From positions 1 to 43,705 of the forward strand of contig JAVVFY010000006.1 of NCBI GenBank assembly GCA_032249395.1: a stretch of DNA of 43,705 nucleotides, read 5' to 3'. Source of the DNA: Candidatus Aenigmatarchaeota archaeon (lineage in GTDB: Archaea > Aenigmatarchaeota > Aenigmatarchaeia > CG10238-14 > SpSt-28). A program made the position numbers. Below, piece after piece: positions 36,001 through 39,000 of this stretch (its first letter is position 1; each line of letters starts with the position of its first letter).

Positions 36001-39000
36001 GGTGATATTGTTGGGATAGATGAGAACTATCTTCTTTTAACCCCTAGTTACGCAAAAATATTAAGAGGTTAGATTTTTGTGACAATAAAAATAGAAATTT
36101 TGGAGAAATCAAATGATACAATAAAATTTTCTGTAGAAGGAATAAAGCCCTCTTTTGCTAATGCACTGCGAAGAATAATGATCTCAGAAATACCTACAAT
36201 GGCTATCGAATGGGTAGATTTTAAAAAGAATGATTCTGCGCTTTACGATGAATTATTAGCTCATAGACTAGGGTTAATTCCTTTAACTTATGATAAGAAA
36301 GCCTATAAATTGCCTGAAGAGTGTAGAGATGCAAGCGTTAAAGATGCTCAATGTTTTGCAAAATTGAAATTGAAGAAAAAGGGGCCTTGTGTTGTTTATT
36401 CTGGAGATTTAGAATCTGAAGATGAGAGCGTTAAACCCGTTTTTGATAAAATTCCTATAGTTGAGCTTTTTGCGGGTCAAGAAATTGAATTGATTGCTTA
36501 TGCAAGGCTTGGTTATGGAAGAGAGCATATAAAATGGCAGGGAGCTGTTGTTGGTTACAGTATAGATGATAATGGAAAAATTACTTTTGAAGTCGAGAGT
36601 TGTTCTGGTTTAAAAGCCGAGGAAATTGTTTTAATGGCGGTGGAAGTTTTCGAGAAAAAATTAAAAGAATTCAAAGCACTATTATCAAAACTCAAGTAGA
36701 ATTAAAAAATAAAATTTCAATTATTTTAATTCAGCTTATCAGCCGGGGTCGCCTAGCCTGGTCGATGGCGGCAGCGCCATTGTCGAAGCTTAAGTGCTGG
36801 CTAGGCACATAAGCTCAGATTAATGAAGAAACCTGCTGGGTTAGTCCCTTCGTGGGTTCAAATCCCACCCCCGGCAGTTATTAAAATTCTGGTCATGATA
36901 AAGATTTAAATACTTCAATCTTCTAAAAAATAGTAGGCATTTATACAATGTTTATTGGAATAAAATTACTATTTAGGATAATAAGAAAATACAAAGTTGT
37001 AAACGAAGATATAATTGAGCGTATGTTTTTAGAAAGTCCAGATTGGAGTGACGATGAAATAAAAAGGTATTTAGATGAATTAGAGAAGATATTTGCACCT
37101 CATTAGTCTAGATTTCCATTAAAAATATTTTAAAATTTTGGTAGTTTCTTTTTTATTCTGTCTTCAGGTCTACCAACCAAAACCCATCCCTCAACTTCCA
37201 CTTTTTTGCCATTAGGTAATTTGAAAATGAAAACACAACTTTTTTTCTCAATCATTTTTTCTCCTTTTTTTGTTTCGATAACAAGCATTTTATAAGTTTC
37301 ATCAACAACCCTTCCTTTAATTCCTATTTGACTCTTATTTGTACTATTTTTTACTTCAACTTCCAGTCCAATTAACTCATGTCTAACCAGATTTCTCTCG
37401 TTTATCATTATTTTAATTTTATGAAGCCTCTATAAAATTTCTATTTGCTCTTCCTTAAAACCAAGAGCAACTAACACTTCTTTTATTCTCTTTCTATGGT
37501 CTCCTTGCAACTCAATATGATTATTTTTAAAAGTTCCACCACAAGCAAGAGTTCTTCTTAATTCCTTAAGAATCTCCTTGACATTTTCTCTTATTCCTTC
37601 TATTATTGTTATCGGTTTGCCGAACCTTCTAGTTTCGATATAAACTCTTATCTTTGCTTCTTCTTTTTCTAAAGCTTCTTCAATTCCAAGCTCTTCAGGC
37701 AATCCAGTTATTTTTTTCATTTTTGGGATCTCTCCCTAATAACAGTTAGTATCCTAGCTATATTTCTTTTCAGATTTTTTATTTTTGACGTATCTTTTAT
37801 AGGTCTACCACTAGCTACAAAACCTCTTTCTTTCATCAGTTCTAGTCTTAAATCATTCAGCCTTTTCTTTAATTGATCCAACGGTTCCTCCCTTATTTTC
37901 TTCAGAAACTCTCCTATCTTCCTCACTCTTTTCACCCTTTTCTATCTTCTTCTCAAAAATAAACTCTTTTGGCATTTCTTTCATTATTCTAACTTCAACA
38001 CCCACAATACCAAATTTAATTAAAGCTTGAGCTTGAGCTTTATCAACAAACCTTTCAGCATATTCTCCGCTAGTAGCAATAAAACCATCTTTAAACTTAA
38101 CTCTTCTCGACCTTTCTTTACCCATTATTTTACCGGAAATAACGATTAAAGCTCCTACAGCTCCGGCTTTCATTATTTGATATAGATAATAAAGAGCGAC
38201 CTTTTTATAATTGATTCCTCTTTCGATGGCTCTAGCAATTCTTCTAGCAACAATATTAGCATCTAAATAAGGATTTGTCACCTCTCTAACATCTATTAAA
38301 GGATTTTCTATTTTAAATTTCTCTTTTATTTCCTCAACGAGCTCATCAATTTTTCTTCCAGACCTTCCGATGATTAAACCTGGCTTATAAGCATAGATTA
38401 TTATTCTAGTTCCGATAGGAGTTCCTTCTATTTCTGCTCTACTATAGCCAGCATGCTCAAATTTCTTTTTTAAATATTCTTGTAAATCTGCTTCTTTTAT
38501 TCCCTGTTTAATAAAAATTCTTTCAACCGCCATCATCTCTCCTCCAGAATTACTGTCAAATGTGTAGTTTTAGCTTTTCTAGGTACAAACTTTGCTCTTT
38601 TCGGTAAATACATCGTTTCTCCTTTATCTGCTTTGATTGTTTTTATAAAAAGTTTATCTACGTTCAAACCTTTTTTCTTTGCATTTGCTTCAGCTTGTTT
38701 TAAAAGAGAAATAAATTCTTTTGTAGCGTTCGTATAGTATTTTCCGTCATAGCTTTCTTTTTGTTTTAATACATTCTCGAGAAAAGTTTTCGCCCTTGAT
38801 AACTTTTTGCCCTTCAAAAACTTGCAAATTGTAATTGCATGTTTTAAAGAAATTCTAGAATTCCTAGTTCTAGCTATCGCTATCTTCATACTTCGCTTCC
38901 TCTCCCACTTTTCTTGCAGATTTTCCCATCGCTACCGCCCTCTGTTAATAAAAGATTTGAACATAATAGAATTTAAATTTATTTTCAAGATAGTATTTAA

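Follow-up and report, generated by a model that had tools for sequence, protein, structure and literature searches.

How does an organism read a codon for which it seems to have no tRNA? In the tiny hot-spring archaeon studied here (0.75 Mb, 31% G+C) UUA makes up 38% of the leucine codons (counted over 313 long ORFs), and the genome seems to be without a matching tRNA because the gene is missed by the tRNA finders. The initial annotation placed this gene at positions 36742-36876 of the window (the whole analysed stretch of DNA, 43,705 nucleotides long) and described it as an essential tRNA-Leu(UAA) hidden by two introns. Its importance is underlined by the codon usage and by a search for a second Leu(UAA) gene, as none was found in the 89.5%-complete assembly. 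The hiding can also be reproduced, where hidden means hidden from ARAGORN and Rfam. ARAGORN reports no tRNA at the locus in default mode, and with option -i it returns the tRNA-Asn(att) with a 50-nt intron that had been noted before as a miscall. The Rfam tRNA model gives no match at the gathering score or at E<=10, and at E<=10 neither a tRNA nor a guide-RNA family is hit across 36600-37000.

Once the two introns (36775-36787 and 36795-36830) are excised, ARAGORN without intron mode calls a tRNA-Leu(taa) of 86 nt, which is also the length of the intron-less Leu(GAG) gene on contig C7. The joined exons have the features of a class II tRNA-Leu, namely a cloverleaf whose variable arm is long, A73 and an anticodon for Leu. 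Repeating the excision at the three other loci of the initial annotation again yielded Leu(tag), Lys(ttt) and Met(cat), and none of the four unspliced forms was called. As had been proposed, the introns of Leu(UAA), Leu(UAG) and Lys(UUU) lie on either side of positions 31-37. Border shifts of 1-2 nt had been considered possible; for intron 1 of Leu(UAA) they are ruled out, given that the letters flanking the intron differ and leave no room for sliding. For Lys the existence of intron 2 stands, but its border, given earlier as 38/39, is ambiguous between 37/38 and 38/39 because an A stands on both sides; we read it as 37/38. The parts of the Leu(UAA) gene are listed in Table 1, together with two other Leu genes of the window.

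Table 1. Positions of the Leu(UAA) gene parts, and of two further tRNA-Leu genes, within the window.
Feature	Position	Strand	Remarks
tRNA-Leu(UAA) gene, two introns and a 7-nt anticodon exon	36742-36876	+	135 nt
Exon 1: acceptor 5' strand, D arm, anticodon-stem 5' strand to position 30	36742-36774	+	cloverleaf after excision; 1/33 columns variable in 8 same-genus orthologs
Intron 1, 13 nt, tRNA position 30/31, relaxed bulge-helix-loop type	36775-36787	+	missing in the G025, G011, G018 and G010 orthologs
Splicing helix of intron 1 (putative), 3' strand, 4 bp	36782-36785	+	partner 36769-36772 (tRNA 25-28)
Micro-exon, 7 nt, tRNA positions 31-37; anticodon UAA at 36791-36793	36788-36794	+	invariant in 9/9 orthologs; yields the Leu(taa) call
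Intron 2, 36 nt, canonical position 37/38	36795-36830	+	homologous to the single canonical intron in other Leu genes of the order
Stretch of 8 nt fully complementary to the D arm of this gene (36751-36758)	36799-36806	+	8 nt reached by 6/1000 shuffles
Antisense (candidate guide) to micro-exon positions 31-35; 36811 opposite U34	36810-36814	+	5 Watson-Crick pairs; 7 in G023
Box D'-like CAGA, one base past the antisense	36816-36819	+	CTGA or TTGA in relatives; register conserved
Box C'-like ATGAAGA	36823-36829	+	position 6 pairs with D' box position 1 in 36/38 modules
Exon 3: position 38, anticodon-stem 3' strand, long variable arm, T arm, acceptor 3' strand, A73	36831-36876	+	cloverleaf; 1/46 columns variable within the genus
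tRNA-Leu(UAG) gene, same layout; intron 1 11978-12007, micro-exon 11971-11977, intron 2 11959-11970	11913-12040	-	Leu(tag) after excision
tRNA-Leu(CAA) gene, one canonical intron (21185-21222) with full antisense/D'/C' module	21145-21268	+	comparison gene

A cloverleaf obtained by excision is weak evidence alone, because most shuffled inserts can be parsed as well: of 2000 insert shuffles 1812 gave some passing parse and 741 of the 2000 a Leu anticodon, and for the real sequence an exhaustive parse left 29 of 4096 one- or two-intron solutions that pass the stem and loop filter. What lifts the gene beyond chance is the comparative evidence, namely the single-intron orthologs, the invariant micro-exon and the different variation of exons and introns. 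Orthologs in four other genera (G025, G011, G018 and G010) carry the 37/38 intron only, and exon 1 and the 7-nt exon are contiguous there. The set of two-intron orthologs numbers ten, with the 7-nt exon unchanged in all nine orthologs that share the layout. Within the genus (8 orthologs) variation touches 2 of 86 columns in the exons but 20 of 52 in the introns (6 of 14 in intron 1, with a 1-nt indel, and 14 of 38 in intron 2), and indels are confined to the introns. For all counts in this analysis it holds that many of the sequences are kin, so that their independence is overstated. Together with the Leu(taa) call after excision, this sequence comparison confirms 36742-36876 as a real tRNA-Leu(UAA) gene split by two introns, as initially annotated. 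By the same comparison the 37/38 intron is the older one, common to other genera, and the 13-nt intron at 30/31 was inserted later in this lineage.

It might be argued that a different parse is the true one, or that the locus is a decaying pseudogene. The 29 passing parses do include a CAG parse and one with a GCAGC/GCTGC stem, and Asn(att) is what ARAGORN -i reports. Nonetheless, the single-intron orthologs fix the order of the exons and the exons are strongly constrained, while the Asn(AUU) parse with its one 50-nt intron disagrees with the long variable arm and A73, which we take to be identity marks of Leu rather than Asn. We therefore regard this alternative as very improbable. Two specific parses were tried and dropped: a Leu(CAG) micro-exon at 36813-36819, where 36816-36818 reads CAG in just three of nine orthologs and CTG or TTG in the others, and introns at 31/32 and 42/43, where base 36775 would have to pair and is C in two orthologs, T in two and A in five.

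Four hot-spring metatranscriptome runs, available as contigs, cover the 3' exon alone, which is common to all Leu tRNAs; no joint over either intron was seen in them and the introns are uncovered. Loose ends in these contigs belong to other Leu genes or to other organisms.

The boldest reading of the initial annotation was that the anticodons sit on micro-exon cassettes that are exchanged among the Leu genes. The UAA and UAG genes are indeed alike on either side of the small exon (CGAA or CGAG in front, TG behind) within a near-identical body, and the pairing of acceptor-stem variant and anticodon differs between two sub-clades of the genus. However, a duplication plus one transition (A-to-G) fits this likeness, no repeats, recombinase or mobile flanks were seen, and a swapped anticodon occurs in no ortholog set: the anticodon exon is constant in 9/9 UAA and 7/7 UAG orthologs (the latter including family f3). 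The body shared by the three Leu genes on contig C6 is present as described, but it loses its value as a sign of cassettes given that the intron-less Leu(GAG) gene on C7 has the same body, which points to ordinary isoacceptor likeness. Exchange of cassettes thus finds no support, and we consider it very improbable.

The introns at 30/31 appear to obey a simple rule. In all 19 that were collected (four tRNA species, 13 genomes) the bases n-5 to n-2 pair with tRNA positions 25-28 and are followed by 2 nt, the cut and G31; 17 have four pairs and two have three. Intron 1 of Leu(UAA) conforms, with four pairs between 36769-36772 and 36782-36785 and both cuts 2 nt beyond. Its orthologs read GTCG, GCCG or GCTG at 36782-36785, each pairing with CGGC; in Leu(UAG) it is GCCG that pairs with tRNA 25-28. 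Compensatory changes are seen in Lys and in G028 and G031 (G27-Y to C27-G, and G26-C to A26-U). In canonical introns n-5 to n-2 follows positions 32-35 instead, as in Glu(CUC) with GGAG versus Glu(UUC) with GAAG, and in intron 2 of Leu(UAA) 36826-36828 pair with positions 34-32 (three pairs and an A-G mismatch; four pairs in G004). Judged from sequence, neither intron has the strict hBHBh' form with two 3-nt bulges and outer helices. The motif of intron 1 is relaxed because its 5' cut falls in a loop, and its outer helix counts just 2 bp, compared with 4 bp in Lys; beside the 5' bulge of intron 2 an inner helix is missing. We accordingly class both as relaxed forms (BHL / HBh').

The splicing helices of both introns are weak, and in weighing the overall explanation this was counted against it. 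Minimum-energy folds favour other pairings, such as intron 1 against D-arm positions 20a-26, but they decide nothing between conformers because the mature tRNA is misfolded too (no cloverleaf is obtained). As a splicing structure the longer hairpin with positions 20a-26 was rejected, since the UAG genes, G031 and G028 lack it in their 30/31 introns. It does show two compensatory pairs in the UAA orthologs and is possibly a competing fold.

Both a splicing endonuclease and an RtcB ligase (573 bits) are encoded in the genome. One endonuclease gene, at C3:59932-61131, is a full-length three-unit EndA of the epsilon type (ARMAN-2-type; E 3e-89 to PDB 4FZ2), with a Lys in the loop that aligns to the ARMAN-2 specific loop, and the other, at about C2:53668-54150, is a separate EndA of the alpha type. 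The earlier claim that the gene structure needs the endonuclease pair g00227 + g00319 is not supported: the two genes are not an alpha/beta pair, and G023, G031 and G028 have kept 30/31 introns with the alpha-type gene as the only endonuclease found.

On each strand the endonuclease would cut at a distance of 2 nt on the 3' side of a 4-bp helix. For intron 1 this would be the helix of tRNA 25-28 with 36782-36785, and the D stem must then open because the helix uses these positions; for intron 2 it would be the helix of positions 32-34 with 36826-36828, beside the restored anticodon stem. RtcB would ligate the ends after cutting. Most likely the introns are removed sequentially and not together, given that their motifs compete for positions 27-28 and that a free 7-mer would be hard to ligate.

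Intron 2 contains more than a splicing helix. Its antisense stretch extends, past one A-A mismatch, into a pairing of 36794-36797 with 36805-36808 (11 pairs with one mismatch if extended), and it is followed by an internal D'/C' motif with box-to-box pairing, where the D' box reads CAGA and is off consensus (not CUGA). The general pattern (antisense from position 31, one base, NNGA, 2-12 nt, RUGA) recurs in 10 of the 13 long introns of the genome, compared with a mean of 0.2 and a maximum of 2 in shuffles, and of the distinct Leu introns seen in relatives 30 of 31 show it. Over 38 modules D' position 1 faces C' position 6 as U-A (18), C-G (16), U-G (2) or a mismatch (2), which presumably reflects the box-to-box pairing scheme of a kink-turn; this covariation speaks for the module. 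In G010, where position 31 is an A, the antisense has a U to match it. The genome encodes fibrillarin, Nop5 and L7Ae. In Leu(UAG) the antisense piece sits in intron 1 and has no C'-like box, which counts against a guide. A stretch complementary to the D arm occurs in intron 2 of Lys(UUU) too, where it matches 7 nt of that gene's D arm, which is a different one (reached by 20/1000 shuffles); in 21 single-intron Leu genes the D-arm complement reaches 3-6 nt.

These observations suggest a guide. In the fold before splicing, 36810-36814 would pair with the micro-exon and the D' and C' boxes would form a kink-loop for L7Ae, Nop5 and fibrillarin, so that U34 would lie in the fifth pair counted upstream from box D', where 2'-O-methylation is predicted. 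As the C'-like box has bases in common with both the intron-2 splicing helix (3' strand, 36825-36828) and the 3' bulge (36829-36831), the guide fold and the splicing fold would be mutually exclusive. We consider intron 2 a probable candidate guide for 2'-O-methylation of its own U34, at about even odds.

Measured as a guide, the module is substandard (no terminal C/D pair, a short duplex and a CAGA box), and we counted this against it: an antisense of about 10 nt is expected, and here there are five Watson-Crick pairs before the mismatch, with the register to U34 kept. The antisense and the kink-loop could then be only an aid to folding or protein binding during splicing (an anticodon-intron helix with L7Ae as chaperone), with no methylation guided. 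In favour of this less likely but still plausible view, no terminal box C (RUGAUGA) and box D (CUGA) pair occurs in the 36-nt intron or its relatives, the duplex has only 5-7 bp and the C' box also serves as splicing helix; moreover, introns of Thr(UGU) and Cys(GCA) have UGA...UGAUGA-like motifs without antisense. Against it speaks the fixed register: in the 10/13 and the 30/31 introns, and over nine anticodon loops, the base that faces position 34 is invariably the fifth one upstream of the D'-like box, and a mere helix has no need of such a register. In Pyrococcus, furthermore, position 34 is a known C/D target: the available text describes stand-alone C/D RNAs directed at it in Leu(UAA), Leu(CAA), Met and Trp (PMC7994747).

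Overall, the best explanation of the locus is a functional two-intron Leu(UAA) gene with helix-defined splicing and a guide in intron 2, to which we assign a probability of roughly three in four. A further-reaching and rather doubtful extension is that the precursor organises its own maturation through the intron-2 guide, the stretch that pairs with the D arm and a C' box that switches partners. The one-kink guide would methylate U34 on the 7-nt exon; 36799-36806 would pair with the 5' half of the D arm and so free D-stem bases 22-25 for the helix of intron 1; and the C' box would then turn to the splicing helix of intron 2 itself. The order would be methylation, intron 1, intron 2, with the 7-nt exon tethered throughout and never a free fragment.

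Kaneta et al. read gaps in the tRNA sets of DPANN archaea as a sign of disrupted genes that have gone undetected (PMC5829648, as far as its available text goes). The Leu(UAA) locus is a concrete case of such a gene, and it offers a simple splicing rule that could be used in tRNA finders. It also sharpens a mechanistic question, namely how endonuclease and ligase cope with an exon of 7 nt. Should methylation of position 34 indeed be guided by the module, then what the textbooks know from one case, the tRNA-Trp intron, would become a general, miniaturised device in about ten tRNAs of one lineage.

The initial annotation presented the gene structure as new, which is too strong. According to the accessible parts of the respective papers, a micro-exon between adjacent introns is known from ARMAN-2 pre-tRNA-Pro(GGG), where 6 nt are left (PMC3239211), and closely spaced introns, of which one has to leave before the next motif can form, are described in the tRNAscan-SE 2.0 paper (PMC8450103). 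Our literature search found no 30/31 and 37/38 pair, no anticodon micro-exon and no one-kink intron guide, but slash labels cannot be searched and the primary surveys (Sugahara 2007, Marck and Grosjean 2003) and supplements were outside its scope, such that a prior listing is possible.

Among known systems, ARMAN-2 shares with our locus two protein-spliced introns a few bases apart, a tiny DPANN host and a three-unit epsilon-type endonuclease; in the excerpted description its small exon lies in the T loop and its motifs are strict BHB, (PMC3239211), whereas here it is the anticodon that the exon holds, both motifs are of the relaxed type and an antisense/kink-loop module is present in one intron. 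Multi-intron tRNAs of Thermoproteales and other archaea, with up to three introns, non-canonical positions and relaxed BHB motifs, are similar in layout (Sugahara 2007/2008 as cited in PMC4033280 and PMC4090602; PMC8450103, in the sections available), but they belong to another lineage with another enzyme type. Several introns per gene at unusual positions are also found in nuclear tRNA genes of the red alga Cyanidioschyzon merolae, a eukaryote; a guide module is not mentioned in the abstract (PMC3728597). The closest parallels to the module are the box C/D guide that euryarchaeal pre-tRNA-Trp carries in its intron (Haloferax; Pyrococcus sR50) and the C/D-like RNA within the tRNA-Met intron of Nanoarchaeum equitans, which by the available text are antisense to the anticodon loop of their own tRNA, have position 34 in the fifth pair counted from a D-type box and need to act before splicing (PMC2584109, PMC7994747, PMC3491384). 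As far as these same sources describe them, those guide introns measure 65-105 nt and have full C, D', C' and D boxes, whereas here a single D'/C' kink-loop fits in 25-40 nt, is spread over about ten tRNA species and, in Leu(UAA), has a 7-nt exon as its putative target. The layout itself is rare, yet of a known kind, that of the multi-intron archaeal tRNAs.

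The tRNA-Leu(UAA) gene of this archaeon, whose assembly comprises 752,806 bases in 25 contigs at ~31% G+C, is divided by two introns that leave a 7-base exon holding the anticodon (coordinates are collected in the table below). It lies on a contig, C6, that also encodes the archaeal SRP RNA. ARAGORN makes no call at this locus in default mode and reports Asn(att) with a 50-nt intron under -i, and the Rfam tRNA model has no match there at the gathering score or at E<=10. After excision of both introns by coordinate, ARAGORN returns an 86-nt tRNA-Leu(taa). The three other loci for which the initial annotation had proposed two introns are called Leu(tag), Lys(ttt) and Met(cat) after the same treatment, and the unspliced forms of all four give no call; the two-intron structure it described is thus present in the sequence. 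The gene is needed by the organism: among 313 ORFs of at least 250 codons, UUA accounts for 38% of leucine codons, more than any other codon, and none of the 12 matches in the source genome, an assembly 89.5% complete, is a second UAA gene. The single-intron tRNA-Leu(CAA) gene is likewise missed by Rfam at the gathering score and by default ARAGORN, and is found with -i only.

Features of contig C6 and of related loci on other contigs of the source genome
Feature	Location	Strand	Remarks
tRNA-Leu(UAA)	C6:36742-36876	+	two introns
Upstream neighbours	C6		rpoD-like and SepF genes
Downstream neighbours	C6	-	RNase P p29, aIF1 (SUI1) and ribosomal protein S3 genes
D-arm segment	C6:36751-36758	+
Intron 1 helix	C6:36769-36772 x 36782-36785	+	tRNA 25-28 with intron, then AA, then G31
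Intron 1	C6:36775-36787	+	between 30 and 31
Small exon	C6:36788-36794	+	positions 31-37, anticodon UAA
Intron 2	C6:36795-36830	+	between 37 and 38
D-arm complement	C6:36799-36806	+	5' part of intron 2
Antisense to small exon	C6:36810-36814	+
C'-like box	C6:36823-36829	+	ATGAAGA
Intron 2, n-5 to n-2	C6:36825-36828	+	splicing helix
tRNA-Leu(UAG)	C6:11913-12040
tRNA-Leu(CAA)	C6:21145-21268		single intron
Initiator tRNA	C1:106654-106772
tRNA-Thr(UGU)	C1:71188-71287		canonical intron
tRNA-Cys(GCA)	C1:89844-89947		canonical intron
tRNA-Lys(UUU) intron 2	C9:29255-29291
Three-unit EndA	C3:59932-61131		400 residues
Alpha-type EndA	C2:~53668-54150

A cloverleaf by itself is weak proof of such a structure, and the comparative data are decisive. 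We scanned every one- or two-intron way of retaining 17 bases between positions 26 and 44: for the real sequence 29 of 4096 parses passed the stem and loop filter, but shuffled inserts gave some passing parse in 1812 of 2000 trials (with a leucine anticodon in 741), so that the cloverleaf alone proves little; the initial annotation had itself cautioned that the borders were set by hand. We therefore rely on the orthologs, obtained by searching 41 related genomes followed by gap-tolerant alignment. Exon 1 and the 7-base exon are contiguous in four of these genomes (G025, G011, G018 and G010), which have a single intron at 37/38; the second intron sits exactly between G30 and G31 in eight genomes of the genus (the ninth, 58% complete, yielded no ortholog) and in G023 and G031, and it arose within a traceable lineage. 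Within the genus, the eight copies differ at 2 of 86 exon columns, none of them among the 7 of the small exon, and at 20 of 52 intron columns, and all indels fall in the introns; with G023 added the figures are 7/86 and 41/63. Two other parses were ruled out: one giving CAG, where six of nine orthologs have CTG or TTG, and one with a border at 31/32, where the base required for pairing is A in five of nine.

Four metatranscriptome contig sets left the introns uncovered and held 0 joints across them, a result that counts neither for nor against the structure. From 36825 onward, an RNA-library contig of run X17 links the end of a Leu(CAA)-type intron with the 3' exon that the Leu genes share; this is either an unspliced precursor from a close relative or DNA carry-over in the library.

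Recognition of the introns probably builds on the canonical archaeal motif, a 4-bp helix with each cut placed 2 nt 3' of it, a geometry consistent with reviews. We collected 19 introns at 30/31 from 13 genomes (ten Leu(UAA), seven Leu(UAG), Leu(CAA) of G028 and Lys(UUU)), and the pairing of tRNA 25-28 with the intron is found at exactly the same place in all of them, with four pairs in 17 and three in two. Substitutions in this helix are compensatory (C27 with G in place of G27 with C or U, and A26-U in place of G26-C). With its 5' cut in a loop and a short outer helix (2 bp in Leu, 4 bp in Lys), the motif is of the relaxed bulge-helix-loop kind. For intron 2, bases n-5 to n-2 form three base pairs with positions 32-34 and leave an A-G mismatch (four pairs in related genome G004); genome-wide this segment tracks the anticodon loop, as shown by GGAG in Glu(CUC) versus GAAG in Glu(UUC). 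Since both motifs require positions 27-28, the two introns are likely removed sequentially. Intron 1 of the initiator tRNA follows the rule of the 30/31 introns as well: n-5 to n-2 form four Watson-Crick pairs with tRNA 24-27, and the cut comes after a further AG. This reading was made by eye, and the border can also be placed one base leftward.

In its 5' part, intron 2 contains 8 nt that are perfectly complementary to the D arm of the same gene, a length reached in 6 of 1000 shuffles. Intron 2 of Lys(UUU) is likewise complementary over 7 nt to the D arm of its gene, which is a different one (20 of 1000), and in 21 single-intron Leu genes the complement spans only 3-6 nt. The segment may serve to unpair the D stem so that the intron 1 motif can form.

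Besides RtcB, two splicing endonucleases are encoded. The ORF on C3 matches PDB 4FZ2 over its full length (E 3e-89), described as the three-unit epsilon-type EndA of ARMAN-2 (PMC3488258), and has retained a lysine where it aligns with the ARMAN-2 specificity loop; the ORF on C2 is alpha-type. They are not an alpha/beta pair. Every genome of family f1 yielded a three-unit EndA, as did f7 and two of the three genomes of f3; in f2, f4, f5 and f6 only alpha-type genes of ~190 residues were found. Nonetheless G023, G031 and G028, which belong to the alpha-type-only group, have 30/31 introns, and the two-intron structure is thus independent of the endonuclease pair it was said to need. The three-unit and a separate alpha-type EndA were found together in seven of nine genus genomes and in G020; the passage on three-unit EndA in Kaneta et al. 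2018 (PMC5829648) gives it as known from the Micrarchaeum group only.

We found nothing for the proposal that anticodons sit on exchangeable micro-exon cassettes: the anticodon exon is fixed in each ortholog set, and the intron-less Leu(GAG) has the common Leu body as well. The UAA and UAG genes resemble duplicates separated by one transition in the small exon. The assignment of the acceptor-stem 3:70 pair to anticodons differs between two sub-clades of the genus (loci L037-L049 and the three Leu genes of C6): in Leu(CAA), five genomes have G3-C70 and three have C3-G70, and in Leu(UAG) the contrast is A3-U70 versus G3-C70, attributable either to compensatory change or to gene conversion between the paralogs.

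Within intron 2 the antisense segment pairs with the small exon and is followed, one base on, by a D'-like box CAGA (CTGA or TTGA in relatives) and, after three bases, by the C'-like box. Defined as antisense opposite position 31 onward, one base, NNGA, 2-12 bases and RUGA, this module is found in 10 of the 13 long introns that adjoin the anticodon in the source genome (Glu UUC, Met, Ser UGA, Gln UUG, Trp, Leu CAA, Ser CGA, Leu UAA, Lys UUU and, partly, Leu UAG, whose antisense piece is located in intron 1 with no C'-like box) against a mean of 0.2 and a maximum of 2 after shuffling. It is absent from the introns of Thr UGU, Cys GCA and Tyr GUA, and it recurs in 30 of 31 distinct Leu introns of relatives. 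The Thr UGU and Cys GCA introns show TTGA...TGATGA-like boxes without antisense to the anticodon loop, the former with a perfect 4-bp canonical splicing helix instead. The module also occurs 5' of the anticodon loop, as in a tRNA-Leu(CAA) of G028 (locus L024) whose sole intron, of 37 nt, is at 30/31.

In box C/D kink-turns, the first base of box D is paired to the sixth of box C. The corresponding D' and C' positions in 38 modules form U-A in 18, C-G in 16 and U-G in two, with two mismatches, and in 31 modules C' position 7 is paired to the base preceding D'. Position 34 lies opposite the fifth base upstream of the D'-like box in every case, and fibrillarin, Nop5 and L7Ae are encoded in the genome. 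Stand-alone Pyrococcus guides are described as targeting position 34 of Leu(UAA), Leu(CAA), Met and Trp (PMC7994747), and ribose-methylated U34 is reported in Leu(UAG) and Gln(UUG) of Sulfolobus acidocaldarius (PMC7668247). Judged from sequence, the intron 2 module would best be read as a candidate miniature self-guide for Um34, at roughly even odds, the alternative being a purely structural role. The C'-like box overlaps the intron 2 splicing helix and 3' bulge, and the guide fold and the splicing fold are therefore mutually exclusive.

Multiple introns, relaxed motifs and close intron spacing are established for archaeal tRNAs in the accounts cited here (PMC4033280, PMC4090602, PMC8450103, PMC3239211), the last of which depicts an ARMAN-2 tRNA with two T-loop introns and an exon of 6 nt between them. 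What is particular to the present tRNA-Leu(UAA) is that the small exon is the anticodon loop itself, that the origin of its second intron can be traced within the lineage, and that the neighbouring intron points a guide-like module at this exon.
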